Source: Candidatus Woesebacteria bacterium
GTDB taxonomy: Bacteria; Patescibacteriota; Microgenomatia; UBA8517
NCBI GenBank assembly: GCA_020060565.1
Contig: JAGVAE010000002.1
Location: 179,255-243,254 of the forward strand
Direction of reading: 5' to 3'
Length of the DNA: 64,000 nucleotides
Positions 5,065 through 62,912 of this stretch are shown here, piece by piece; position 1 is the stretch's first letter; each line of letters starts with the position of its first letter. A program made the position numbers and the translations under genes. The notes beneath the pieces were generated by a model. It searched no databases. It saw nothing but the letters and a program-made list of their open reading frames with translations, and was not told the DNA's origin.

Positions 5065-6111
5065 ATGGAATCTGCTGCCCAAGAAATTAAAACACTGATT
5101 GAAAGAATTACCAAGGCTGATCTTCCTGATAGACTTCGAGAGTTGGTTTTGATTCGTCTTAATCAGTTAACAAAATTAACCAACTCCCCATCTTTCTTAC
5201 CTGAATTTGACAGTATTGTTCGCTATATCGATTGGATAACAATACTCCCGTGGAGTAAAAGAACCCAGGATCAGCTCGATTTGGAGAATGCAAAGAAAAT
5301 TTTGGAACAACACCACTACGGACTTGAAGATATTAAGACCCGTGTCTTGGAGTATATGAGTGTGATGAAACTTAAATTGGAAAAAGGTGAGAGTAAAGAT
5401 ATATATCGTGCTCCCATTCTTTGTTTTGTTGGTTTAGTGGGAACTGGTAAAACCACAATTGCCTATTCAATTGCAGAAGCTTTGGGGCGTCCCATTGCAC
5501 GTATTCCATTTGGGGGTATGGGAGATCCATTGGATCTTAGGGGTCAGAGTAGAATGCACCCTGAGGCAGAACCTGGAAAAGTTATTAAAGCCTTAAGAGA
5601 TACCCAAAGCAAAAATCCTGTAATACTTCTTGATGAAATTGATAGGGTAACCGAGCAAGGAAGAAGTTCCATTATGGGAGTTTTGGTTGAACTACTTGAT
5701 CCTAAACAGAACTATGCCTATGTTGATCATTACATAGATTTTCCATTTGATTTATCAGAAACTCTTTTTATAGCAACCGCGAATAATACAACTAGCATTG
5801 CAACGGCAGTTATGGACAGATTGGAACCAATTTCCATGCCCAGCTACACCGATCAGGAAAAAATTGTAATAGGTCAGAAGTACATCTTACCAGCAACTAT
5901 GAAAGCTTCGGGATTACCCGAAGGGGCACTTAAGATTAGTGATGATGTTTGGGCAAATATAGTCAGACCCTTAGGGTATGATGGAGGTATTCGTACACTT
6001 GAGCGCAATATTGATGGAGTTGTTAGAAAAGTTGCAAGAATGTTGGTTGAAGGTAAAGCTAAGGAAGTCAGTGTAACCCCCGAAAACGTCAAAACATTCT
6101 TGCCACAGTAA
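5065..6111 (+). CDS. Lon-derived AAA+ ATPase core (no LON N-domain, no S16 protease domain)
   Basis: 348 aa. It aligns colinearly with the E. coli Lon linker and AAA+ module: IVRYIDWITILPWSKRT…HHYGLEDIKTRVLEYMSVMKL; a Walker A-like GLVGTGKTT; a Walker B ILLDEID; LVELLDPKQNYAYVDHYIDFPFDLSETLFIATAN; and GGIRTLERNI (sensor-2). It ends exactly where the Lon protease domain would begin. Confidence 0.8.
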   Translation: MESAAQEIKTLIERITKADLPDRLRELVLIRLNQLTKLTNSPSFLPEFDSIVRYIDWITILPWSKRTQDQLDLENAKKILEQHHYGLEDIKTRVLEYMSVMKLKLEKGESKDIYRAPILCFVGLVGTGKTTIAYSIAEALGRPIARIPFGGMGDPLDLRGQSRMHPEAEPGKVIKALRDTQSKNPVILLDEIDRVTEQGRSSIMGVLVELLDPKQNYAYVDHYIDFPFDLSETLFIATANNTTSIATAVMDRLEPISMPSYTDQEKIVIGQKYILPATMKASGLPEGALKISDDVWANIVRPLGYDGGIRTLERNIDGVVRKVARMLVEGKAKEVSVTPENVKTFLPQ

Positions 6112-7156: not shown

Positions 7157-7770
7157 GTAAATACGAGGAGCTTCACAAGTTAAAAGAAGAGATGGAAAAA
7201 GACGAGAGCCTTCCTCTTAAAAAAGGTGCTACAAAATTAGTTTTTGGGGTGGGCAATACCGAAGCTAAAATTGTTTGTGTGGGAGAGGGGCCTGGGAGGA
7301 CGGAAGACCAACGGGGAATACCATTTGTTGGTCAGGCGGGAAAGCTTCTCGATAAATTATTTCCTCTGGCAGGTTTAGAACGGAAAGAAGTATTCATAAC
7401 CAATATTGTTCACCACAGACCTCCGGAAAACAGGGACCCTCTTCCTGAAGAAATCTTAGCTTATGGAAAATATCTCGACAAAATTATAGAAATAATAAAA
7501 CCCAAAGTGATTTTAACTTTAGGTAGGTTTTCCATGGCAAAGTTTTTACCAAATGTTTTTATCTCGTCCGTTCACGGCAAGAGATACGAAGTATTAGTGG
7601 GAGGTCGCAGTACTACAATTATTCCCATGTATCACCCTGCAGCTTCACTTAGAAACGGAAATGTTTTAGCTCAGGAAAAATTGGATTTTAAAAACCTAAA
7701 AAATATATTGGCCGAGCTTTCAAAACCAAAAGAGAATATAATTGAGGCAGAACAAACAAGTTTAATTTAA
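7153..7770 (+). CDS. Uracil-DNA glycosylase, family 4-like
   Basis: Motif A is GEGPGRTEDQRGIPFVGQAGKLL and motif B is HPAASLRN. The genes overlap by 4 nt (ATGA). Confidence 0.8.
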   Translation: MSKYEELHKLKEEMEKDESLPLKKGATKLVFGVGNTEAKIVCVGEGPGRTEDQRGIPFVGQAGKLLDKLFPLAGLERKEVFITNIVHHRPPENRDPLPEEILAYGKYLDKIIEIIKPKVILTLGRFSMAKFLPNVFISSVHGKRYEVLVGGRSTTIIPMYHPAASLRNGNVLAQEKLDFKNLKNILAELSKPKENIIEAEQTSLI

Positions 7771-9431
7771 TGAAAAATTCAAATGGTTTAAAGTTTATAG
7801 CACTTTCAGGAACGATTGATGTTACTGAAAATCTTTATGTCTACGAATATGGAAATGACATGATGATTGTTGATTGTGGTGTTGGGTTTCCCGATCTAGA
7901 AATGCCAGGAGTTGAATTGGTTCTACCGGACTTTTCCTACATTGTAAAAAATAAAAATAAATTAAGGGGAATTGTAGTTTCTCAGGGACACGATGATCAT
8001 GTTGGAGCCCTCCCTTTTCTTTTAAAAGAACTAAATGCTCCTATTTGGTGTACTCCTCTTGTTACAGAGTTTTTAAAAGTTAAATTTAAAGATTATAAAG
8101 TCACAAACTATAAACTAAACACATTTAATCCAGACCGTGATGTTTTTAGTGTTGGACCCTTTAATATTATTTCATTCCGTGTGACCCATTCAGTTCCTGA
8201 TACTGTGGGTTTTGCTATTGATACTCCTGAGGGAAGAGTTTTCCATGTAGCAGAACACAAGATGGACCAGACATCCGCTGATAATATGAATTTTGACATT
8301 GTCAAAGCCAAGAAATTAGCCGATGAAAAACCAGTTTTATGTCTAATGTCCGACTGCTTAGGATCAAACTCTCCAGGATTTACTCCAAGTGGACAATCAA
8401 TCGAAAACAATCTTTTTAATATTGCCAAAGATGCCTCTCAGGCAATTTATATGACTGCAATCTCCTCAAGTATCGGCAGATTTCAGCAAATGATTCGTGT
8501 AGCACAAAAGATAAATAGGAAAGTTGTACTTGTGGGGCGTTCTGTTCAAAGTAAAATTGAAATTGCCCATGACTTGGGTTATTTAAACTATCCCAATGAT
8601 CTAATAATAGATCTAAAAGAGTCACTTAATTATAATCCCAGAAAACTTGTTTATATTATTGCTGGTTGTTATGGCCAGATCGGAAGCTCTGTTTATAGAC
8701 TCGCTCTTGAGGAGCACGAGAGAGTTAAAATAAACAAAGGTGATACTTTCATATTCTCTGCAGATCCCGGCCCCGCCTACTCAAAAGAGAGTGAAGATTT
8801 TATAGTTGATAAACTGGTCGATCTTGGTGTGGATGTTCACTATTACGATTTAGGGGAAGGACTTCATGTTTCAGGACATGGTGGTCAGGAAGATATTAAG
8901 GAACTGTTTAAGATTGTAAAACCAAAATATTACATTCCTACAGGGGGAACTATTAGATATATGAAGTCGTATGAGAAATTAGCAGTTTCGGTTGGAGCAA
9001 AAGAGGAAGATGTATTTAGACTTAAACCTGGGGAAAGTGTGATTTTTGAGGATGGACAAGCAAGGCGTGGAGAAACTATTAAGACAAAAGAGGTATTGGT
9101 TCATGGATTGGGAATTGGTGATATTGGTAAGGTTGTTCTAACGGATAGAACTGCATTGGGCAAGGAAGGAGTTGTTGTTGCTGTAGTTAAAACAAACAAA
9201 CAGGGAAAAATTGTGGCAAGGCCAGAATTAACTAGTCGTGGATTTGTTTTTGAACCAGGGTATGGTGGAGTGCTTGATGAAGCCGCAATTGGTTTAGATA
9301 AAACTCTCCAAAGTAAAAAATTACAAAATAATTCTTCTATAAAAAATCTTACAAATCAATTTTTGGAAAAGTATTTCTATGACAAAACTCGCCGCCACCC
9401 CATGATTCTCCCAGTGGTTGTTGAGGTTTAA
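7770..9431 (+). CDS. rnj: Ribonuclease J (metallo-beta-lactamase/beta-CASP)
   Basis: The N-terminus is LKFIALSGTIDVTENLYVYEYGNDMMIVDCGVGFPD, followed by GHDDHVGALP (a variant HxHxDH), a beta-CASP region and a C-terminal domain; 553 aa in total. Confidence 0.85.
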   Translation: MKNSNGLKFIALSGTIDVTENLYVYEYGNDMMIVDCGVGFPDLEMPGVELVLPDFSYIVKNKNKLRGIVVSQGHDDHVGALPFLLKELNAPIWCTPLVTEFLKVKFKDYKVTNYKLNTFNPDRDVFSVGPFNIISFRVTHSVPDTVGFAIDTPEGRVFHVAEHKMDQTSADNMNFDIVKAKKLADEKPVLCLMSDCLGSNSPGFTPSGQSIENNLFNIAKDASQAIYMTAISSSIGRFQQMIRVAQKINRKVVLVGRSVQSKIEIAHDLGYLNYPNDLIIDLKESLNYNPRKLVYIIAGCYGQIGSSVYRLALEEHERVKINKGDTFIFSADPGPAYSKESEDFIVDKLVDLGVDVHYYDLGEGLHVSGHGGQEDIKELFKIVKPKYYIPTGGTIRYMKSYEKLAVSVGAKEEDVFRLKPGESVIFEDGQARRGETIKTKEVLVHGLGIGDIGKVVLTDRTALGKEGVVVAVVKTNKQGKIVARPELTSRGFVFEPGYGGVLDEAAIGLDKTLQSKKLQNNSSIKNLTNQFLEKYFYDKTRRHPMILPVVVEV

Positions 9432-27574: not shown

Positions 27575-27648
27575 AATTGTCCAATTGAATAACAGTCTCT
27601 ATCCTGTTAAAATCACTCTTGCTTCCTGAAAAAGGGAGTTTTTCTTGT

Positions 27649-27682
27649 CCTTTAGGATTTAGGAATTAGGGTTTAGAATTTA
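27649..27682 (+). repeat. Degenerate heptamer (TTTAGGR, telomere-like) tandem repeats
   Basis: CCTTTAGGATTTAGGAATTAGGGTTTAGAATTT lies just upstream of the fusA ATG. It is related to the repeat inside miaA at 60654-60716. Confidence 0.6.
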
Positions 27683-27689
27683 TTTATAT

Positions 27690-29858
<2,169 letters not shown>

Positions 29859-37407: not shown

Positions 37408-37689
37408 ATGAGCAGAAGTAATAAAAAAGGACCGTTTGTAGATCCTAACTTAATTAAAAAAATTGAAAATGGATTAGGCTTGAAAGAAAGCCCAATCAAG
37501 ACGTGGTCAAGAGCTTGTCAAATTGCCCCTACTTTTGTGGGTAAGTATTTCCAAGTACATAATGGGCATGTTTTTATCAATATTTTTGTAACTGAAGACA
37601 TGGTGGGACATCGCTTGGGTGAGTTTTCACCAACCAGAACATTTAGAGGACATGGTGAGGTTGTTAAAAGAACGATGGATAAGACCTAG
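37408..37689 (+). CDS. rpsS: 30S ribosomal protein S19
   Basis: [18 protein letters not shown]…[34 protein letters not shown]. Confidence 0.95.
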
Positions 37690-37699
37690 TGTAATCAAT

Positions 37700-38146
37700 A
37701 TGGAAAAAACATTTAAATCAACACAAAAATATTTAATAGAAAGCCCAAGAAAGTTAAGACTTGTTGTCGGTTTGATTAAAAAGATGAGCCCACTTGAGGC
37801 AATTGAGAAGTTGCCATTTGCTAGTCGTCGTGCAGCTCATGATTTAATCAAGGTAATCAAATCAGCCATGGCCAATGCCAAAAACCAGGGAGTAAGTGAC
37901 ACAGATTTAATATTTAAAGAGATTCAGATTGGTGAAGGCCCACGCTTAAAAAGAGGAAGAGCCGCAAGTCGTGGCCGTTGGCATCCGTTCAAGAAAAGAA
38001 TGAGTCATATTAGGGTTGTACTAACAACTAAACCCGTTAAGTCCGTTAAGAAAGAAGAAGTTAATGAAGTAGTTGAGCAAGAAAAGAAAACAAAAGAAGT
38101 TAAAGTCAAAGAAGTGAAAAAAGTTAAGAAAGGAACTGATAAATAA
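37700..38146 (+). CDS. rplV: 50S ribosomal protein L22 with a Lys-rich C-terminal extension
   Basis: MEKTFKSTQKYLIESPRKLRLVVGLIKKMSPLEAIEKL…; the tail is KKEEVNEVVEQEKKTKEVKVKEVKKVKK. The track start at 37619 overlaps rpsS. Confidence 0.9.
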   Translation: MEKTFKSTQKYLIESPRKLRLVVGLIKKMSPLEAIEKLPFASRRAAHDLIKVIKSAMANAKNQGVSDTDLIFKEIQIGEGPRLKRGRAASRGRWHPFKKRMSHIRVVLTTKPVKSVKKEEVNEVVEQEKKTKEVKVKEVKKVKKGTDK

Positions 38147-38147
38147 C

Positions 38148-38801
38148 ATGGGACAAAAAGTTAATCCAATCGGCATAAGAACTGGTTTTTATCTCCCCTG
38201 GAAATCCAGGTGGTTTGGAGATAGCAGGTCGTTCAAGGAATTCTTAGTGGAGGATATTAAGATAAGAACTGGCTTAATGGATAAGCTTAAACTTGCAGGA
38301 ATTACTACTGTTGAGATTGAGCGAATGGCCAAAAGTATGGTTGTAATTATCACAGTAAGTAGGCCAGGAGTAGTAATAGGTCGTGGGGGAACAGGGATCG
38401 AAGATGTCAAAAAATTTATTTTATCTGTAATGAGAGAGACCAGGGGAAAGGTGGTAAAAGATGTTAAAATAGATATTCGAATTAACGAAGTAAAAAATCC
38501 CGAATTATCCGCACATTTGGTTGCAGGAAGAATTGCACAAGAGTTGGAACGTAGAATTCCCCACAGGCGTGCAGTTCAGAAAGCAATAGAGCGCGTCATG
38601 GCCTCAGGAGCCTTGGGAGTAAAAGTAGTTCTTGGGGGACGTATAAATGGAGCAGAAATAAGTCGTGTTGAGAAATTCCATCAGGGTTCGGTTCCATCAC
38701 AAACTTTAAGGGAAAACATTGATTATTCTCAGGTTCCCGCACTTTTGAAACGTGGTTATGTGGGAGTAAAAGTCTGGATACATAGAAAAATAGAAGATTA
38801 A
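38148..38801 (+). CDS. rpsC: 30S ribosomal protein S3
   Basis: MGQKVNPIGIRTG… with a KH domain; 217 aa. Confidence 0.95.
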   Translation: MGQKVNPIGIRTGFYLPWKSRWFGDSRSFKEFLVEDIKIRTGLMDKLKLAGITTVEIERMAKSMVVIITVSRPGVVIGRGGTGIEDVKKFILSVMRETRGKVVKDVKIDIRINEVKNPELSAHLVAGRIAQELERRIPHRRAVQKAIERVMASGALGVKVVLGGRINGAEISRVEKFHQGSVPSQTLRENIDYSQVPALLKRGYVGVKVWIHRKIED

Positions 38802-38806
38802 ATAAT

Positions 38807-39217
38807 ATGTTACAACCAAAAAGAAGAAAATTTATTAAAGAGTTTAGGGGTAGAAGACGTGGTAATGCAACCCGTGGAGCTGATATTTCATTTGGAGATT
38901 TTGCCATGAAGGCACAAGAAGTTGCTTGGATAACATCAGCCCAAATTGAATCAGCAAGGCGTACAATTACTCATTCCCTTAAAAAGGGGGGTAGGGTTTG
39001 GATCAGGATTTTCCCAGACAAACCAATAACTGGTCGACCCGCTGGAAAGCGTATGGGTGGTGGAAAAGGAGATATTTCAACTTACGTTGCAGTGGTTAAA
39101 CCTGGAATGATACTTTTTGAGGTTGCAGGAGCAGCTGAAGAGATTGTTCGTGAGGCATTTAGAAAAGCTGCTTGTAAATTACCAATTGATATCAAAATGG
39201 TATCTCGTGAGAATTAA
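38807..39217 (+). CDS. rplP: 50S ribosomal protein L16
   Basis: MLQPKRRKFIKEFRGRRRGNATRG…RMGGGKGDISTYVAVVKPGMILFEV. Confidence 0.95.
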   Translation: MLQPKRRKFIKEFRGRRRGNATRGADISFGDFAMKAQEVAWITSAQIESARRTITHSLKKGGRVWIRIFPDKPITGRPAGKRMGGGKGDISTYVAVVKPGMILFEVAGAAEEIVREAFRKAACKLPIDIKMVSREN

Positions 39218-39223
39218 TGAAAT

Positions 39224-39246
39224 AAGCGAAAGCTTGTTAGAATATC
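39224..39246 (+). repeat. Recurrent intergenic hairpin motif, copy 1 (AAGCGAAAGCTTGTTAGAATATC)
   Basis: An AAGC-GAAA-GCTT stem-loop plus TTAGAATATC, ending immediately before the rpmC ATG. Near-identical copies occur at 40072-40093 and 41172-41193. Confidence 0.6.
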
Positions 39247-39462
39247 ATGAAAAAGAAAGACTTTATCGATTTAAGAGCAAAAGACCTTAAGGCTTTAAAA
39301 TCAATGGCTATGGCTAAAAAACTTGAAGCTGATAAGATGCGAATGGAGATAGTTGGTGGAAAAGAAAAGAATCTTAAAGCAACCAACAATCTAAGGCACG
39401 ATATTGCTCAGATTTTAACATTAGTTAGGGAGAAAGAAATTTTAGAAAAATTAAATAAATGA
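39247..39462 (+). CDS. rpmC: 50S ribosomal protein L29
   Basis: 71 aa; LRAKDLKALKSMAMAKKLE…. Confidence 0.85.
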   Translation: MKKKDFIDLRAKDLKALKSMAMAKKLEADKMRMEIVGGKEKNLKATNNLRHDIAQILTLVREKEILEKLNK

Positions 39463-39707
39463 AAATATTTGTTGGACATGTAACTGGCACAAAAATGGCA
39501 AAAACAGCAGAGGTTACCGTGGAAAGAGTTGTCATCCATCCTCTATACAAAAAGAGATTTAAAAGAGACAAAAAATATCAAGTTCATGATGAAATTGGTA
39601 CTAAAATTAACGATGTGGTTAAATTTGCAGCCAGCAAACCATATTCGAAAACCAAAAAATGGAAAATATTAGAGGTTGTCACAGCAAAGAAAGGAAAAGC
39701 AAAATAA
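39459..39707 (+). CDS. rpsQ: 30S ribosomal protein S17
   Basis: GHVTGTKMAKTAEVTVERVVIHPLYKKRFKRDKKYQVHDE. Confidence 0.9.
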   Translation: MKIFVGHVTGTKMAKTAEVTVERVVIHPLYKKRFKRDKKYQVHDEIGTKINDVVKFAASKPYSKTKKWKILEVVTAKKGKAK

Positions 39708-40073
39708 ATGGTACAACTTAGAAGTATACTAGTACCTGCCGATAACAGTGGGGCAAAACGCCTAATGATTATTGGAGTTCCTGGGCGTGTCGGAAAAGTT
39801 GCAACTCTTGGAGATGTTGTTCTCTGTGTAGTACAGGGGGCTAATGTGGCAGGAGCAGTAGTTGATCATGAGAAAGTAAAAGTTTTAATTGTCAGGACTC
39901 GAAAAGAAGTGGGAAGAAGTGATGGAAGTTATATAAGATTTGACGACAATGCGGGAGTGGTAATTGATAAACAGGGGCTGCCTCGCGGGACTAGAATTTT
40001 GGGTCCCATAGCCCGTGAGGTTAAAGAAGTTGGATATCATAAAATAGCATCACTAGCTAGGGAGGTTATATAA
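39708..40073 (+). CDS. rplN: 50S ribosomal protein L14
   Basis: MVQLRSILVPADNSGAKRLMIIGV…. Confidence 0.95.
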   Translation: MVQLRSILVPADNSGAKRLMIIGVPGRVGKVATLGDVVLCVVQGANVAGAVVDHEKVKVLIVRTRKEVGRSDGSYIRFDDNAGVVIDKQGLPRGTRILGPIAREVKEVGYHKIASLAREVI

Positions 40074-40093
40074 GCAAAGCTTGTTAGAATATC
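40072..40093 (+). repeat. Recurrent intergenic hairpin motif, copy 2 (AAGCAAAGCTTGTTAGAATATC)
   Basis: Overlaps the rplN stop codon; it differs from copy 1 by a single-base deletion. Confidence 0.6.
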
Positions 40094-40101
40094 TTAAAAA
40101 A

Positions 40102-40416
40102 ATGATGAAACTAAAGATAAACGATACAGTCAAAATAACAATAGGTAAGGACAAAGGTAGAGAGGGTAAAATTGAAAAAATTATGCCCAAAGAAGCCAAA
40201 ATCATTGTACCTGGGGTAAATATGTATAAAAAACATGTTAAAGGAATAGGAGAAACAAAGGCTGGTATATATGATATACCTCGTCCACTTTCTCTGGGAA
40301 AAGTTGCATTGATTTGTCCTAAATGTAAAAAAATAACTAGGGTTGGGTTTAAATTTGCAGGAAGCCAAAAAGTTAGAGTTTGCAAGAAATGTGGAAAAGA
40401 GATAGACACTAAATGA
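40102..40416 (+). CDS. rplX: 50S ribosomal protein L24 with a C-terminal C4 zinc-ribbon extension
   Basis: A KOW motif (KINDTVKITIGKDKGREGKI) and the C-terminal CPKCKK…CKKCGKEID. The ATG at 40102 is preferred over the track's TTG at 40081. Confidence 0.85.
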   Translation: MMKLKINDTVKITIGKDKGREGKIEKIMPKEAKIIVPGVNMYKKHVKGIGETKAGIYDIPRPLSLGKVALICPKCKKITRVGFKFAGSQKVRVCKKCGKEIDTK

Positions 40417-40417
40417 T

Positions 40418-40975
40418 ATGAATAGACTTAAAGAAAAATACAACAAAGAAATTAAGGAAGTTTTGATTAAAGAATTGGGAGTAAAAAATACAATGTCACT
40501 TCCAAAACTAGTAAAGGTTGTTGTTAATATGGGAATTGGAGAGGCTGCCAAGAGTAAACAAGCAATGGAAGCTTTGCAAAAAGACATGGCGGCGGTTACT
40601 GGACAGTTCCCATCAACAAGAAACGCTAAAGTTTCAATTGCAAGTTTCTCTCTTAGGGCTGGAATGCCAGTTGGCCTTTCCGTTACTTTGAGAGGGGAAA
40701 AGATGTATTCATTCTTGGATAGACTATTCTCAATAGTTTTGCCTCGTTTGAGAGATTTTAGGGGAGTGTCTGATAAATCTTTTGACAAACAAGGAAACTA
40801 TACACTTGGACTAGTGGAGCATACAGTTTTTCCCGAGATTGATTCAACTAAATCAGCTGCCCCTCATGGAATGGAAATTACGATCGTAACAACGGGGGGG
40901 ACCATGTTAAAATCCAAAAAGCTTTTGGAACTACTTGGAATGCCATTCACTAAAGAATTAAAAATTGAAAATTAA
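40418..40975 (+). CDS. rplE: 50S ribosomal protein L5
   Basis: MNRLKEKYNKEIKEVLIKELG…; 185 aa. Confidence 0.95.
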   Translation: MNRLKEKYNKEIKEVLIKELGVKNTMSLPKLVKVVVNMGIGEAAKSKQAMEALQKDMAAVTGQFPSTRNAKVSIASFSLRAGMPVGLSVTLRGEKMYSFLDRLFSIVLPRLRDFRGVSDKSFDKQGNYTLGLVEHTVFPEIDSTKSAAPHGMEITIVTTGGTMLKSKKLLELLGMPFTKELKIEN

Positions 40976-40987
40976 AAATTAAAAATT

Positions 40988-41173
40988 ATGTCAACAACAG
41001 CAAAAGAAGTTAGAGAAACAAAAAAGTTAAAGTACAAAGTTAGATATCATAACCGCTGCAAGATCTGTGGAAGGTCCAGGGGCTATATGAGAAAATTTGG
41101 CCTTTGTAGACTCTGTTTTAGAGAACATGCCCTTAGGGGCGAGATTCCTGGAGTTAGAAAGGCTAGTTGGTAA
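40988..41173 (+). CDS. rpsZ: 30S ribosomal protein S14, zinc-binding type Z
   Basis: 61 aa; [23 protein letters not shown]. Confidence 0.9.
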
Positions 41174-41193
41174 GCGAAAGCTTGTCTTAGATA
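41172..41193 (+). repeat. Recurrent intergenic hairpin motif, copy 3 (AAGCGAAAGCTTGTCTTAGATA)
   Basis: Overlaps the rpsZ stop codon and precedes the rpsH ATG (41204). Confidence 0.55.
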
Positions 41194-41203
41194 AATAATA
41201 AAT

Positions 41204-41605
41204 ATGTCAAAAACAAGAAAACAATCAGTTAGCAATTATCCAGTGGGAGATTTCTTGATTCAACTTAAGAATGCTTCTAGGGCTGGAAATAAAGTGGTAA
41301 AAGTAATGACAAGTAATAAAATCTTGGCAATTGCCGAGACTCTTAAAAAGCTTGGATTTTTGGATAGTGTTAAAAAAGAAAAAGAAGAAATTGTTGTAGG
41401 ACTTACTTTTAAAAATAAAAAACCGCTATTAATGGATGTTAAGCTGGTAAGTAAGCCTGGTCTTAGGATTTATATGGGAGCTGACGAAATTGCAAAGAAA
41501 AAAGGACCATCAATTTTCTTAGTTACAACTACAAAGGGAGTAATCTCTTCTGTACAAGCAGTAAAAGATAGACAAGGTGGAGAAGTGATAGCCGAAATAT
41601 TGTAA
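41204..41605 (+). CDS. rpsH: 30S ribosomal protein S8
   Basis: 133 aa; …GGEVIAEIL at the C-terminus. Confidence 0.95.
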   Translation: MSKTRKQSVSNYPVGDFLIQLKNASRAGNKVVKVMTSNKILAIAETLKKLGFLDSVKKEKEEIVVGLTFKNKKPLLMDVKLVSKPGLRIYMGADEIAKKKGPSIFLVTTTKGVISSVQAVKDRQGGEVIAEIL

Positions 41606-41606
41606 T

Positions 41607-42158
41607 ATGTCAAAAATTGGAAAATTACCAATATCAATTCCTGCAGGAGCAACAGTGAATGTTGAGGGGCGTCACGTGACCGCGGTCGGACCTAAAGGAA
41701 CTTTGACCCAGAAATTACCCAGAGGTATTGAGGTTGAGGTTAAAGATGGAATAGTTAATGTTACGACCAAAGGAAAAAATAAGACCAATATGAGTAATCA
41801 TGGGACAATTAGGGCTCTTATCAACAACAACATAATTGGAGTTACGACTGGCTGGAGTAAACAATTGGAGTTGGTTGGAACTGGATTTAGAGCAGAGGTT
41901 GTGGGAAGTACGCTAACTTTAACAGTTGGATTTTCCCATACTGTTAAGATTGAAGCACCCGAAGGAATTAGCTTTAAAGTTGAAAAAACATTTGTTACAG
42001 TCGAAGGTGCTAGTCGTGAGGTGGTGGGGCAAATAGCATCTGAAATTCGTGCAGTTAGACCTCCCGAGCCATATAAAGGTAAAGGAATTAAGTATGTTGA
42101 CGAAGTAATTAGAAGGAAAGCTGGTAAAGCAGCTGCAAAAACAACGGGAGCGGCCTAA
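41607..42158 (+). CDS. rplF: 50S ribosomal protein L6
   Basis: [33 protein letters not shown]. Confidence 0.95.
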
Positions 42159-42162
42159 TCAT

Positions 42163-42504
42163 ATGGAAATTAAAGCAAAAAGATACAAACAAAGAAAAGC
42201 TAGGGTAAGATCCCGTGTCGAAGGAACGATGGAACGACCTAGATTTACAGTCTATAAATCGAAAATTTATATTTATGGACAGCTTATAGATGACACAAAA
42301 GGCAAAACCCTGGCCTCAGCCAGTGACCTTAAAGTCAAAACTGGAAAAAAGGTTGAAAGAGCAGGGGTAGTGGGGGAAGAGTTGGCTAAAAAAGCTCTAG
42401 CTAAAAAGATTAAAAAAGTAATATTTGACAGAAATGGATACAAATATCATGGAAGAGTTAAGGCTTTGGCCGAAGGAGCAAGAAAAGGGGGATTAGAATT
42501 TTAA
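42163..42504 (+). CDS. rplR: 50S ribosomal protein L18
   Basis: …[20 protein letters not shown]…[26 protein letters not shown]. Confidence 0.9.
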
Positions 42505-42505
42505 A

Positions 42506-43015
42506 ATGGCAGGTTTTAATAGAAATCAACAAAGCTACGGTGGAGTTCCAAAAGAGTTTGAGGAAACTGTGGTTCAAATAAATAGAATCAGCAAGAAAAC
42601 CAAAGGTGGAAACACCATCAGGTTTTCTGCATTGGTAGTTGTGGGAGACAAAAAGGGAAAAGTGGGAGTTGGAATTGCTAAAGCTCATGACGTTAGAAAT
42701 GCAATCAGAAAATCTATAGAGGCTGCAAAAAGGAAGATGGTTTTGGTTCCCTTAGTAGGTACCACAATCCCCTACTCTGTTAATGAAAAATTCTCAGCAG
42801 CTAAAATACTTCTAAAGCCGGCCCCTCCTGGGTCAGGTATTATTGCAGGGGGACCAATGAGGGTGGTTTTGGAAGCTGCAGGAATACGCGATGCAGTTGG
42901 TAAAATCTTGGGAACAAAGAATAAAATTAGTAATGTTTATGCCACACTTAAAGCATTGGATACAATATCAAACTTGGTATATATGAAGAAGAAAGGAGAT
43001 AGTAAGGGATTATAA
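42506..43015 (+). CDS. rpsE: 30S ribosomal protein S5
   Basis: …VVQINRISKKTKGGNTIRFSALVVVGDKKGKVGVGIAKA…. Confidence 0.95.
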   Translation: MAGFNRNQQSYGGVPKEFEETVVQINRISKKTKGGNTIRFSALVVVGDKKGKVGVGIAKAHDVRNAIRKSIEAAKRKMVLVPLVGTTIPYSVNEKFSAAKILLKPAPPGSGIIAGGPMRVVLEAAGIRDAVGKILGTKNKISNVYATLKALDTISNLVYMKKKGDSKGL

Positions 43016-43034
43016 TCCTGAGCAAAGTCGAAGG

Positions 43035-43448
43035 ATGATCAAATTAAACAAAGTTGTTACTAAGTCAAAGAAAAGAGTAGGACGAGGAATGGGAAGTGGA
43101 AAAGGATCCCATACGGTAGGACGTGGCCAAAAAGGACAAAAATCAAATACTGACATCCACATTCTTTTTGAAGGACTTAAGATGAAGAAATCTTTCCTCA
43201 AAAGGCTTCCCTTAATGAGGGGGAAAGGAAAGTTTCATGGTAAGGGTAAACCAGTAACACTTAATTTGAGTGATTTGGAAAGCTTACCAACAGGATCAGT
43301 TATTACAGTAGAATTATTAGTTAAATCAAAGTTGGTTGATGCCAAGGAGGCAAAAACATTTGGAGTTAAGATTTTGAGTAATGGCAAAACTACTAAAAAA
43401 TTCACCTTCGAAGTCCCTACCTCAAAATCTGTTCAATCTTCAAAATAA
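43035..43448 (+). CDS. rplO: 50S ribosomal protein L15 (no L30 gene precedes it)
   Basis: MIKLNKVVTKSKKRVGRGMGSGKGSHTVGRGQKGQKS. Confidence 0.9.
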   Translation: MIKLNKVVTKSKKRVGRGMGSGKGSHTVGRGQKGQKSNTDIHILFEGLKMKKSFLKRLPLMRGKGKFHGKGKPVTLNLSDLESLPTGSVITVELLVKSKLVDAKEAKTFGVKILSNGKTTKKFTFEVPTSKSVQSSK

Positions 43449-43503
43449 AAACTTGCATCCTACAGTTTAATATTTTTATATTGGTGGTATATTTTCTTAG
43501 TTT

Positions 43504-49192: not shown

Positions 49193-49426
49193 TTGTTTCC
49201 AAAAGGATTAATGAAAACAACAGGAACAATCGAGGTTGAAGGGAAAGTATTACAGGCTTTGCCCAATACAATGTTTAGGGTGGAACTAACAGATGGTAGG
49301 CTTATTTTGGCCACACTTAAGGGAAAAATGAGAAGAGCGTATGTTAGAATTTTTCCTGGGGATAGAATAAAAATAGAGATGACACCATATGATGAGAATA
49401 GAGGTAGGATAGTTTTTAAATTCTAA
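49193..49426 (+). CDS. infA: Translation initiation factor IF-1
   Basis: GTIEVEGKVLQALPNTMFRVELTDGRLILATLKGKMRRAYVRIFPGDRIKIEMTPYD. Confidence 0.9.
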   Translation: MFPKGLMKTTGTIEVEGKVLQALPNTMFRVELTDGRLILATLKGKMRRAYVRIFPGDRIKIEMTPYDENRGRIVFKF

Positions 49427-49459
49427 GTACTGTGTACTAAGTACTTAGTACTAAATATC

Positions 49460-49573
49460 ATGAAAGTAATTAGTTCAATTAAACCAAGATGTAAAGATTG
49501 CAAATATGTTAAGCGCCGAGGCGTTTTATATATTATTTGTAAAAATCCCAGGCACAAACAGAGACAGGGGTAA
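49460..49573 (+). CDS. rpmJ: 50S ribosomal protein L36 (not in the ORF track)
   Basis: ATG at 49460. It translates to [37 protein letters not shown] (37 aa, a C-C-C-H zinc ribbon), with a TAA stop at 49571-49573. Confidence 0.85.
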
Positions 49574-53842: not shown

Positions 53843-53962
53843 GAATCATTATATAATTCTGGCAGTACAAAGTTAATATATCTGCTGGATCAAGCTAGTC
53901 AATGAAATGTATTTAGAGTATTTGCCAACAGTTGAATGAGTGTTAAAATACGCTCAGACAAC

Positions 53963-62460: not shown

Positions 62461-62485
62461 AAAAAATCCCGCATGAAAGCGGGAT
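62461..62485. terminator. Bidirectional Rho-independent terminator hairpin
   Basis: AAAAAA-ATCCCGC-ATGAAA-GCGGGAT-CCTTTGT. This gives a U-run on the minus strand (ending the rnpB-side transcript) and a T-rich tail on the plus strand (after the AI-2E gene). Confidence 0.55.
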
Positions 62486-62533
62486 CCTTTGTACTTTAGA
62501 GGTTAGTAAGCAAAGCTTGCTAACTGTTATTTC

Positions 62534-62560
62534 CAAAAAAATACCCACTTGCGTGAGTAT
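62534..62560 (-). terminator. Rho-independent terminator immediately 3' of rnpB
   Basis: Minus strand: AAAUACUCAC-GCAA-GUGGGUAU followed by UUUUUUU. Confidence 0.55.
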
Positions 62561-62564
62561 TTCT

Positions 62565-62912
62565 TTACTTTAGAGGTTAGTAAGCCAGGTTCTGTTTCTC
62601 GATGATCATCCATCTAACGCCCTCGAACTTCGTCCCGCCTCTTGGTTTTACCCAAGATTTTTTAAAAACATTTTTCGCCCGGTAAGGGGCGGGACTTTCG
62701 GAGGTTGCACCGGCGAGGATTGCCTCTTTTCACTCGTTTTCTCCTACCTTTAGGGTAGAAGGCACGACATAGTTTCTGTGGCTCTAGCTGGCGCTTATGC
62801 GCTCAGGCTTACGCCTGACAGCCTGTTTTCTGGTGCCTGGACTTTCCTCCCCGTTAGATAGCGAGCTCTTGCGAGCTCTATCTCACAGGGCGATCATCCT
62901 TCCTCTAAAGTA
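62565..62912 (-). ncRNA. rnpB: RNase P RNA (bacterial type, compact)
   Basis: Minus-strand read: P1 is ACUUUAGAGG…CCUCUAAAGU. P2 is GAUGAUC/GAUCAUC. P3 is a GCAA-tetraloop hairpin. The universal P4 5' strand is GGGGAGGAAAGUCCAGGC, and the 3' strand is GAAACAGAACCUGGCUUAC (consensus ACAGAAcCCGGCUUA). The region is GC-enriched and has several internal helices (GUCCCGCC/GGCGGGAC, CUUGG-GUAAAA-CCAAG). Confidence 0.8.

Follow-up and report, generated by a model that had tools for sequence, protein, structure and literature searches.

A short, mobile hairpin cassette on the sense strand before start codons in Woesebacteria and other Microgenomates

A 64,000-nucleotide (nt) stretch of a Candidatus Woesebacteria genome (assembly GCA_020060565.1, contig JAGVAE010000002.1, positions 179,255 to 243,254; hereafter the window) carries three related hairpin motifs in spacers of its ribosomal protein (r-protein) operon, between rplP and rpmC (copy 1), rplN and rplX (copy 2) and rpsZ and rpsH (copy 3). 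All three are members of one cassette family, with units of 21-24 nt, that occurs in Woesebacteria and other Microgenomates, lineages of the Candidate Phyla Radiation (CPR). The cassette is real, widespread and evolutionarily mobile, lies in the sense orientation, and fills one of two kinds of gap, from a stop codon to the start codon that follows it or from a leaderless-type -10 box to its ATG. The reading tentatively preferred here, a plausible one that falls somewhat short of probable, is that the unit would act at the RNA level as a mobile leader or intercistronic cassette composed of a self-contained hairpin and an unstructured tail before the AUG, a function to which its position points. 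No description of such an element was found in Rfam or in the literature on CPR translation initiation and intergenic repeats, and it appears to be undescribed.

In its general form the unit consists of (A)T-AAGC, a loop of 3-4 nt with a final A, GCTT-G/A and an A/U-rich tail of at least 11 nt that ends at the ATG; as RNA it begins (A)U-AAGC-RRA-GCUU-G/A and forms a stem-loop of 5-7 bp. The loops include AAA, which is commonest, GAA, GAAA, AGA and GGA, nearly all ending in A, and the tails fall into subtypes, among them GTTAGAATATC (type A), (A/G)TTYRGGACAA and ..GATCTAAA... A sequence-only reading of the window had described the three copies as near-identical, each with an AAGC/GCTT stem and a GAAA or AAA loop. 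The stem and loop are present in all three. Near-identity holds for copy 1 (AAGCGAAAGCTTGTTAGAATATC, 39224-39246) and copy 2 (AAGCAAAGCTTGTTAGAATATC, 40072-40093), the sole difference being that the loop of copy 2 is one base shorter, whereas in copy 3 the shared TAAGCGAAAGCTTGT leads to CTTAGATA... and not to TAGAATATC; the window thus has two copies with the GTTAGAATATC tail and one diverged copy. Copies 1 and 2 share the 17-mer AAGCTTGTTAGAATATC without a mismatch, with 0.45 matches expected even when three mismatches are allowed; copies 1 and 3 likewise share the 15-mer TAAGCGAAAGCTTGT (expectation 0.17 at two mismatches). AAGC-N3-5-GCTT occurs only four times in the 64-kb window. A chance origin was ruled out by shuffles and by about 80 real copies outside the window.

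The genes flanking copies 1, 2 and 3 were identified by Pfam as L16/L29, L14/L24 and S14/S8, respectively. As the sequence-only reading had it, copies 2 and 3 coincide with the upstream stop, their starts falling inside the TAA of rplN and of rpsZ, and copy 2 ends about 8 nt before the rplX ATG at 40102; in copy 1 the rplP stop codon lies 6 nt 5' of the motif and the TAA at 39223 is out of frame. The claim that copies 1 and 3 both end flush with the next ATG applies to copy 1 (rpmC ATG at 39247) but not to copy 3, since the rpsH ATG at 41204 is 10 nt past 41193. The variant ATATC-TTAAAAT-ATG seen in copy 2 recurs in two related metagenome loci (L108 and L147; loci are designated by L and three digits). 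Throughout the rplW-rplO stretch, every spacer of at least 19 nt is a repeat unit, three being of the AAGC/GCTT family and one, at rpsE/rplO, of a second family. The other junctions measured are at most 12 nt long or overlap, that of rpsS/rplV depending on the rplV start chosen.

The family was delimited in 80 L24-centred loci from Microgenomates, a sample that is unbiased as to the motif. The hairpin lies at many different r-protein junctions in L001 (two copies), L008 (three), L011, L012 (eight), L015, L019 (three), L030, L045 and L064. AAGC-N3-4-GCTT was counted 28 times in 95 kb of non-coding sequence versus 30 times in 572 kb of coding sequence, or 24 versus 7 times when the loop was purine, and sense copies of the hairpin outnumber antisense copies 31:4 in the related loci. 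A random distribution without enrichment at gene junctions, which would have refuted the sequence-only reading, is clearly not the case. Among 21 junction copies, AAGC starts at the second base of the upstream TAA in 13, and the distance from GCTT to the next ATG is 11-23 nt in 17 and below 11 nt in none. In 22 of the 198 spacers of 16-60 nt the 5' arm of a hairpin starts within the stop codon, compared with 0.8 +/- 0.9 in shuffled sequence; 16 of these hairpins have the AAGC/GCTT stem and six have others, such as TAAGTC/GACTTA, TAACC/GGTTA and TAAGGTTA/TAACCTTA. Because these six stems are unrelated, the architecture is wider than the AAGC/GCTT sequence family. A fifth base pair is U.G in 14 copies and U-A in three, and it can form in the sense RNA only. 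Conserved sequence, strand bias, the U.G pair and the recurrence of the architecture with other stems support the prediction of an RNA hairpin.

The cassette extends well beyond r-protein operons. A metagenome scan with AAGC-N3-4-GCTTGTTAGAATATC, a pattern of 19 specified bases that does not contain the ATG, returned 86 copies at 77 loci. Sampling sites with matches include Hainich groundwater (H41/H43/H51) and the JGI samples Ga0187886 and Ga0172379/81. Six loci look like chance matches, having pyrimidine-rich loops, no T before and no ATG after the unit, and lying in several cases on high-GC contigs, which leaves 71 real loci. The ATG follows directly in 65 of these, T precedes the unit in 61 and AT in 53, and none of the 71 is oriented away from the adjacent gene. 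The downstream open reading frames (ORFs), identified by reading their N-termini, are diverse and include Ndk, ThyA, TsaD, Dtd, L36 (rpmJ), IF-2 (infB), GyrB, RNase J, a response regulator, glycosyltransferases and many membrane proteins. At approximately 25 loci the preceding ORF runs in the same direction and its TAA stop extends into the stem, while at approximately 10 the upstream gene is divergent. A TATAAT box lies 6-11 nt upstream of AAGC in L087, L092, L100, L106, L120 and L146 and, by reading of the flanks, in L122 and L134, a spacing that predicts a transcription start at the first bases of the unit. Units also form tandem arrays, with a 24-nt period in L120, L135 and L146 and a 21-nt period in L105, and head-to-tail mosaics with other units, e.g., AAGC..GCTT-GCCACTTCGTGGT followed by a type-A unit.

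Comparison among relatives revealed rapid turnover. Synteny with the window, at 75-91% amino-acid identity, was seen in eleven metagenome loci, whose copies are at different junctions. The closest relatives (L001, L002 and L101) have no unit at any of the three window junctions; in L101 the corresponding spacers are 7, 8 and about 14 nt, yet a unit is present at rpsH/rplF, a junction of 1 nt in the window. In L108 a family-1 unit occupies rpsE/rplO, the site of the second cassette family in the window, and three close relatives (L114, L131 and L132) have type-A AAGC/GCTT units at infA/rpmJ. Conversely, a TAATG overlap in the window (7768-7772) corresponds to ATA-TAAGCAAAGCTTGTTAGAATATC-ATG in L116 and L117, and an ATGA overlap (58886) to two units in L142; once AAGC...ATATCAT is taken out of these three loci, an ATGA overlap reappears and the upstream frame terminates at TGA. 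Subtraction of the 24-nt unit from L100 and L106 (by flank reading also from L122 and L134) leaves a -10 box, 6 nt and the ATG, which is the modal leaderless geometry, and the w5065/w6141 junction has a leaderless promoter in the window and a unit in L143. Based on these filled and empty sites and the turnover, it was concluded that the unit acts as a discrete insertion just 5' of the start codon, with gains and losses over short evolutionary times. As regards a possible target-site duplication, AAGC is preceded by AT in 53 of the 71 loci, the unit is followed by AT(G), and removal of the unit together with one AT gives back ATGA in L116, L117 and L142; the AT, however, also extends the stem and belongs to the start codon. 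Candidates for the spreading mechanism are AT microhomology, template switching and an enzyme of some kind.

These results bear directly on two suggestions of the sequence-only reading. A miniature dispersed repeat is supported by about 80 near-identical copies before unrelated genes, by the mosaics and arrays and by the complete turnover of junctions. A conserved translational-coupling or re-initiation element of r-protein spacers is supported only in part, because the downstream genes are diverse and orthologous spacers are not conserved, the closest relatives having no unit at the three window junctions; the translation-related part of that suggestion is retained, being indicated by the flush ATG in 65 of 71 loci, the frequent TAA in the stem and the sense-strand placement.

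The main rival explanation is a functionless selfish or neutral mini-repeat, similar to repetitive extragenic palindromic (REP) sequences and bacterial interspersed mosaic elements (BIME) or to organellar hairpins, that spreads by insertion at ATG or AT sites or by template switching. This possibility is taken seriously but considered rather unlikely, as is its corollary that copies are seen at stop/start junctions only since compact genomes tolerate no insertions elsewhere. It accounts for the complete turnover of occupied junctions between relatives at about 80-90% amino-acid identity, for near-identical 22-nt copies before unrelated genes in many genomes, for the arrays and mosaics, for AT at both ends in 53 of 71 loci, for decayed copies and a stem that is invariant without covariation, and for the other repeat families in the same spacers. 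Pure neutrality is difficult to reconcile with the lack of any locus, out of 71, oriented away from the adjacent gene and with the ATG flush in 65. Moreover, essential r-protein operons tolerate copies, enrichment extends to stop-anchored hairpins of unrelated stem sequence (6 versus 0.8 expected), viral contigs contain no real copy, and the 22-nt unit has no terminal inverted repeats, no known mechanism and no known transposase partner, Y1 transposases not having been searched for.

The host clade appears to make very little use of Shine-Dalgarno sequences and to have many leaderless promoters. Relatives of the window's L24 are found in metagenome-assembled genomes of Woesebacteria and other Microgenomates, the best being 85% identical, and no L30 gene is present between S5 and L15 in the window. 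Loss of the anti-Shine-Dalgarno sequence has been reported mainly for a subgroup of Parcubacteria (PMC9297842). In the window, Shine-Dalgarno-like 4-mers occur at -20 to -4 of only 8 of 74 genes, with no positional peak, and G is depleted just 5' of start codons. The three spacers lack GGAG, GAGG and AGGA, in agreement with the sequence-only reading, but because Shine-Dalgarno-like motifs are nearly absent across the window genes, this is a property of the clade and not of the motif. Extended -10 boxes (TGnTAnnnT) were tallied against 1057 ORF starts from the window and related loci, and their distance to the ATG has a sharp mode at 6 nt, with 24 cases versus 0-8 at neighbouring distances. A -10 box at this distance is the geometry of leaderless mRNAs, and the pattern suggests that leaderless or near-leaderless mRNAs are widespread in the clade. 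Within the window, extended -10 boxes stand 6-9 nt before the ATGs of ORFs starting at 5065, 6141, 12981, 18059, 33806 and 47788.

A second rival explanation is that TGTTAGAAT in the type-A tail, a perfect match to the extended -10 consensus (TGnTAnAAT), starts transcription of the downstream gene. Elsewhere in the window, promoters of this type precede tRNA-Pro (53941-53949) and rnpB (62926-62918), in a 24-nt array the transcript from each box would begin with the opening bases of the following unit, and the w5065/w6141 junction has a leaderless promoter where L143 has a unit. Nevertheless, an internal promoter is regarded as very improbable. The box ends 3 nt before the ATG, a distance found only at background level in the clade (3 cases, against 24 at the 6-nt mode), so that transcription would start inside the coding sequence; the GGACAAA, GATCTAAA and copy 3 tails lack such a box, and a number of copies are closely preceded by a TATAAT box of their own. 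On this box-to-ATG geometry, and on a -35/-10 scan that gave nothing at the copies, a promoter for the adjacent ATG was rejected.

According to the preferred reading, the cassette would serve in mRNA as a transferable leader, or as a linker between cistrons, that works independently of a Shine-Dalgarno sequence. Its hairpin would fold on itself once the terminating ribosome has passed and, being at least 11 nt before the AUG, would be located at or beyond the limit of the mRNA held by the 30S subunit on the 5' side of the P site; approximately 11 nt are held between the P site and the 30S exit. The tail and AUG would thereby be kept single-stranded and not paired with upstream coding sequence. 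In promoter-proximal copies the hairpin would become the 5'-terminal stem-loop of the transcript, given the predicted 5' end, and could also slow end-dependent decay. Because copies reside inside essential, stoichiometrically expressed r-protein operons, the unit must be at least competent for efficient initiation at the abutting AUG. A stronger version, judged unlikely, is that the cassette constitutes a new translation start signal, a mobile "plug-in leader" placed exactly before the ATG in which the hairpin and A/U tail replace the Shine-Dalgarno interaction. A hairpin on the platform side, 11 nt before the AUG, would then sit where the Shine-Dalgarno helix would be, and ribosomes tuned to leaderless mRNAs could initiate at internal cistrons in CPR bacteria.

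Several observations weigh against the leader or linker reading. Including flanking bases, the stems of the three window copies comprise 6-7 bp and have predicted stabilities of -3.4 to -6.9 kcal/mol. These hairpins are weak, and only copy 1, at -6.9 kcal/mol in isolation (z = -4.5; 0 of 200 shuffles as stable), is clearly better than shuffled sequence, the values for copies 3 and 2 being -5.5 (5 of 200) and -3.4 kcal/mol (19 of 200); in a 66-nt context no fold was predicted for copies 2 and 3. Covariation was sought in the core stem and none was found: the four core pairs are invariant, overall scores are no better than those of shuffles, and of four equally stable G/C choices in the stem GC alone is used. 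The hairpin is therefore backed by sequence conservation and not by compensatory change. Furthermore, the type-A tail contains the good extended -10 box TGTTAGAAT, decayed copies exist (e.g., in L003, L006, L007, L008, L014, L024 and L027), and presence is patchy, as would be expected of a neutral repeat.

A sequence-conserved stem could also reflect recognition of the invariant UAAGC...AGCUUG by a trans-acting factor, a proposal that we rate as quite unlikely whether the factor is an endoribonuclease or an RNA-binding regulator that defines a regulon. The former, which would make the unit the RNA processing site proposed in the sequence-only reading and act in the manner of mitochondrial punctuation, would be expected to cut polycistronic mRNA into units with short leaders or none, and is no less doubtful. 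Sequence is conserved in the stem and at the final loop position but varies elsewhere in the loop and in the tail, the main subtype keeps a constant spacing to the AUG, the hairpin is positioned exactly at cistron boundaries, and processing to a 5'-proximal AUG would make sense in a clade with leaderless initiation. On the other hand, no candidate factor was identified, the tails of the other subtypes, at 11-23 nt, offer no common cleavage ruler, turnover is too fast for a stable regulon, and the downstream genes have no common functional theme.

A number of other identities were considered. Among the Rfam 15 covariance models, rnpB was the only match at gathering score in the window, and nothing relevant was found at E <= 10 in 38700-43500. 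An r-protein-specific regulatory leader was rejected based on the diverse downstream genes, the unconserved orthologous junctions and the lack of an Rfam match. An intrinsic terminator was rejected because no terminator-like site is present in 38800-41400, and a Shine-Dalgarno site because the spacers lack the 4-mers named above. A Shine-Dalgarno sequence that a bridging hairpin carries close to the start codon, on the model of phage T4 genes 25 and 38, was rejected: the GGAGG-like runs upstream of the hairpin lie in conserved coding sequence (the C-terminal Arg-Glu-Val of L14, for example), and with the hairpin subtracted they would still be about 20 nt from the AUG. Pairing of UUAGAA with a UUCUAA 16S rRNA 3' end was judged implausible in register. 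A phage origin was rejected since the single viral-contig match is the chance-like L113 site. Finally, the unit lacks the terminal inverted repeats of a miniature inverted-repeat transposable element, its sole inverted repeat being the internal AAGC/GCTT stem at its 5' end, with the tail unpartnered.

Among known systems, the REP/BIME elements of enterobacteria and pseudomonads are similar in being short, extragenic and hairpin-forming, in lying in operons just after stop codons, in being dispersed, arranged in mosaics and arrays and patchy between relatives, and in having proposed effects on the mRNA stability and translation of their neighbours. The cassette differs in being shorter (21-24 nt, with a 4-7 bp stem) and in lacking a GTAG-type 5' tetranucleotide, the stem being preceded by T or AT. 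REP sequences occur in both orientations, typically as inverted pairs, whereas the cassette is in the sense orientation (31:4 in one sample and 71 of 71 in the other), its arrays run head-to-tail, and it meets the downstream start codon to the exact base, often contributing the AA of the UAA stop. Stabilizing stem-loops are known from the ompA and aprE leaders and from the puf and malEFG intercistronic regions. They share with the cassette a small stem-loop at a transcript 5' end or cistron boundary, followed by a single-stranded ribosome-binding stretch, but are single, locus-specific and conserved and have a downstream Shine-Dalgarno sequence, while the cassette is multi-copy and mobile in a Shine-Dalgarno-poor clade.

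Hairpins and tRNAs also serve as punctuation in leaderless mitochondrial mRNAs. Repetitive hairpin-forming elements are described for organelle genomes, such as sponge mitochondria (PMC2800124). In common with these organellar systems, the cassette has a compact host genome, small hairpins that invade intergenic slots, leaderless-type translation and cistron boundaries marked by structure; it differs in its bacterial (CPR) host and its much shorter unit, and its processing is only hypothetical. Another report (PMC13037366) describes GCGAAAGC and GCGAAGC as extraordinarily stable DNA mini-hairpins, and cassette copies with GAAA or GAA loops contain exactly one or the other of these. Because the commonest loop, AAA, yields GCAAAGC, which is not the motif so described, the mini-hairpin is not a defining feature. 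The cassette is set apart from the known kinds by its size, single orientation, stop/start precision and leaderless host context poor in Shine-Dalgarno sequences.

CPR bacteria, or Patescibacteria, make up a large and mostly uncultured share of bacterial diversity, and we know of no study of how translation is initiated in them. The clade considered here appears to combine near-absent use of Shine-Dalgarno sequences, frequent leaderless promoters and tightly overlapped genes, and the cassette may be how such bacteria, which lack ribosome-binding sites, start translation inside operons. A short cassette that fits between any stop and start, even in an r-protein operon, is directly relevant to initiation at internal cistrons, and would add a member with start-codon precision and a single orientation to the interspersed hairpin repeats. 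Because the unit marks true start codons, it could aid annotation of these genomes, and it is a candidate natural "insulator leader" for synthetic operons.

Table 1. Coordinates of the cassette copies and related features in the window.
Feature	Coordinates	Strand	Description
Copy 1, rplP/rpmC spacer	39221..39249	+	Full type-A unit AT-AAGC-GAAA-GCTT-GTTAGAATATC flush with start codon; stem 39221-39227 paired with 39232-39238 (AAUAAGC/GCUUGUU); GAAA loop 39228-39231; tail GTTAGAATATC ends at 39246; rpmC ATG 39247-39249
Copy 2, rplN/rplX spacer	40070..40104	+	Stem 40070-40075 with 40079-40084; AAA loop 40076-40078; rplN stop TAA (40071-40073) within stem; type-A tail to 40093, then TTAAAAAA (40094-40101); rplX ATG 40102
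Copy 3, rpsZ/rpsH spacer	41169..41206	+	Stem 41169-41175 with 41180-41186; GAAA loop 41176-41179; rpsZ stop TAA (41171-41173) within stem; diverged A/U-rich tail GTCTTAGATAAATAATAAAT up to rpsH ATG 41204
Second cassette family, rpsE/rplO spacer	43013..43037	+	TAA-TCCTGAGCAAAGTCGAAGG-ATG
infA/rpmJ spacer	49424..49462	+	TAA stop, two tandem AGTAC/GTACT hairpins, AAATATC, ATG 49460; related architecture
Fourth AAGC-AAA-GCTT site	62502..62524	.	Tip of 10-bp hairpin GTTAGTAAGC-AAA-GCTTGCTAAC; family membership uncertain

Other repeats occupy similar positions (Table 1). The motif of the second cassette family, (T)CCTGAGCGAAGTCGAAGG(A), is also flush with ATGs at other junctions, with four copies in L006 and one at rpsH/rplF in L017. 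Its outer stem, CCU/AGG, extends and covaries between copies (CUU/AAG, CCCU/AGGG and GAUCCU/AGGAUC) around a conserved 12-nt loop, GAGCGAAGUCGA. A third family of spacer repeats consists of AT-rich heptad-like repeats (GGATTTAGGAATTAGGGTTTAGAATTT; TTTCGAATTTCGATATTCGAATTTAGGATTT), located at approximately 27640-27689 in the window, upstream of an ORF at 27690-29858, and also in the rplV/rpsC spacers of L009, L015, L017, L025, L029 and L033.

The palindrome near the rnpB tail that the sequence-only reading had related to the motif does exist (AAGCAAAGCTT, 62508-62518), but it has other flanks and no ATG. The hairpin that it tips is located between the rnpB terminator and a duplicated rnpB 3' tail. 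This tail (TACTTTAGAGGTTAGTAAGC, + strand) is repeated about 65 nt away (62492-62575), its second copy running into the 10-bp hairpin, and a bidirectional terminator-like hairpin, CCCGCATGAAAGCGGG, lies at approximately 62469-62484. The same arrangement of tail and hairpin beside rnpB in L142 (4543-4640) indicates that it is conserved.

Several r-protein genes of the window and its relatives have features of their own. L24 (40102-40416) has a C-terminal zinc-ribbon-like extension (CxxC...CxxC) and two Met codons at its start, the second of which could be a footprint of unit insertion. The predicted rplV ORF (ATG 37652 or GTG 37619; region 37408-38146) overlaps the rpsS end (37689) by 38-71 nt, as it does in most relatives according to tblastn, which is unusual for that junction. 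In L039, L040 and L043 (Roizmanbacteria-like and related), the rpsZ-rpsH "spacer" of 270-415 nt encodes an apparent S19, starting ATGGCACGATCA...AAAAAAGGACC..., which suggests a relocated or extra rpsS. Lastly, a composite of AAGC-AAA-GCTT and GGCCAGTCAGAGCCCTGGTAAG, which is non-coding in L098, L112, L118 and L142, appears in frame in a C-terminal extension of L22 (…KQSLASQSPGK…) in L011 (~1950), L017 (~1917) and L012 (~1858), so that repeat units may be recruited into coding sequence.

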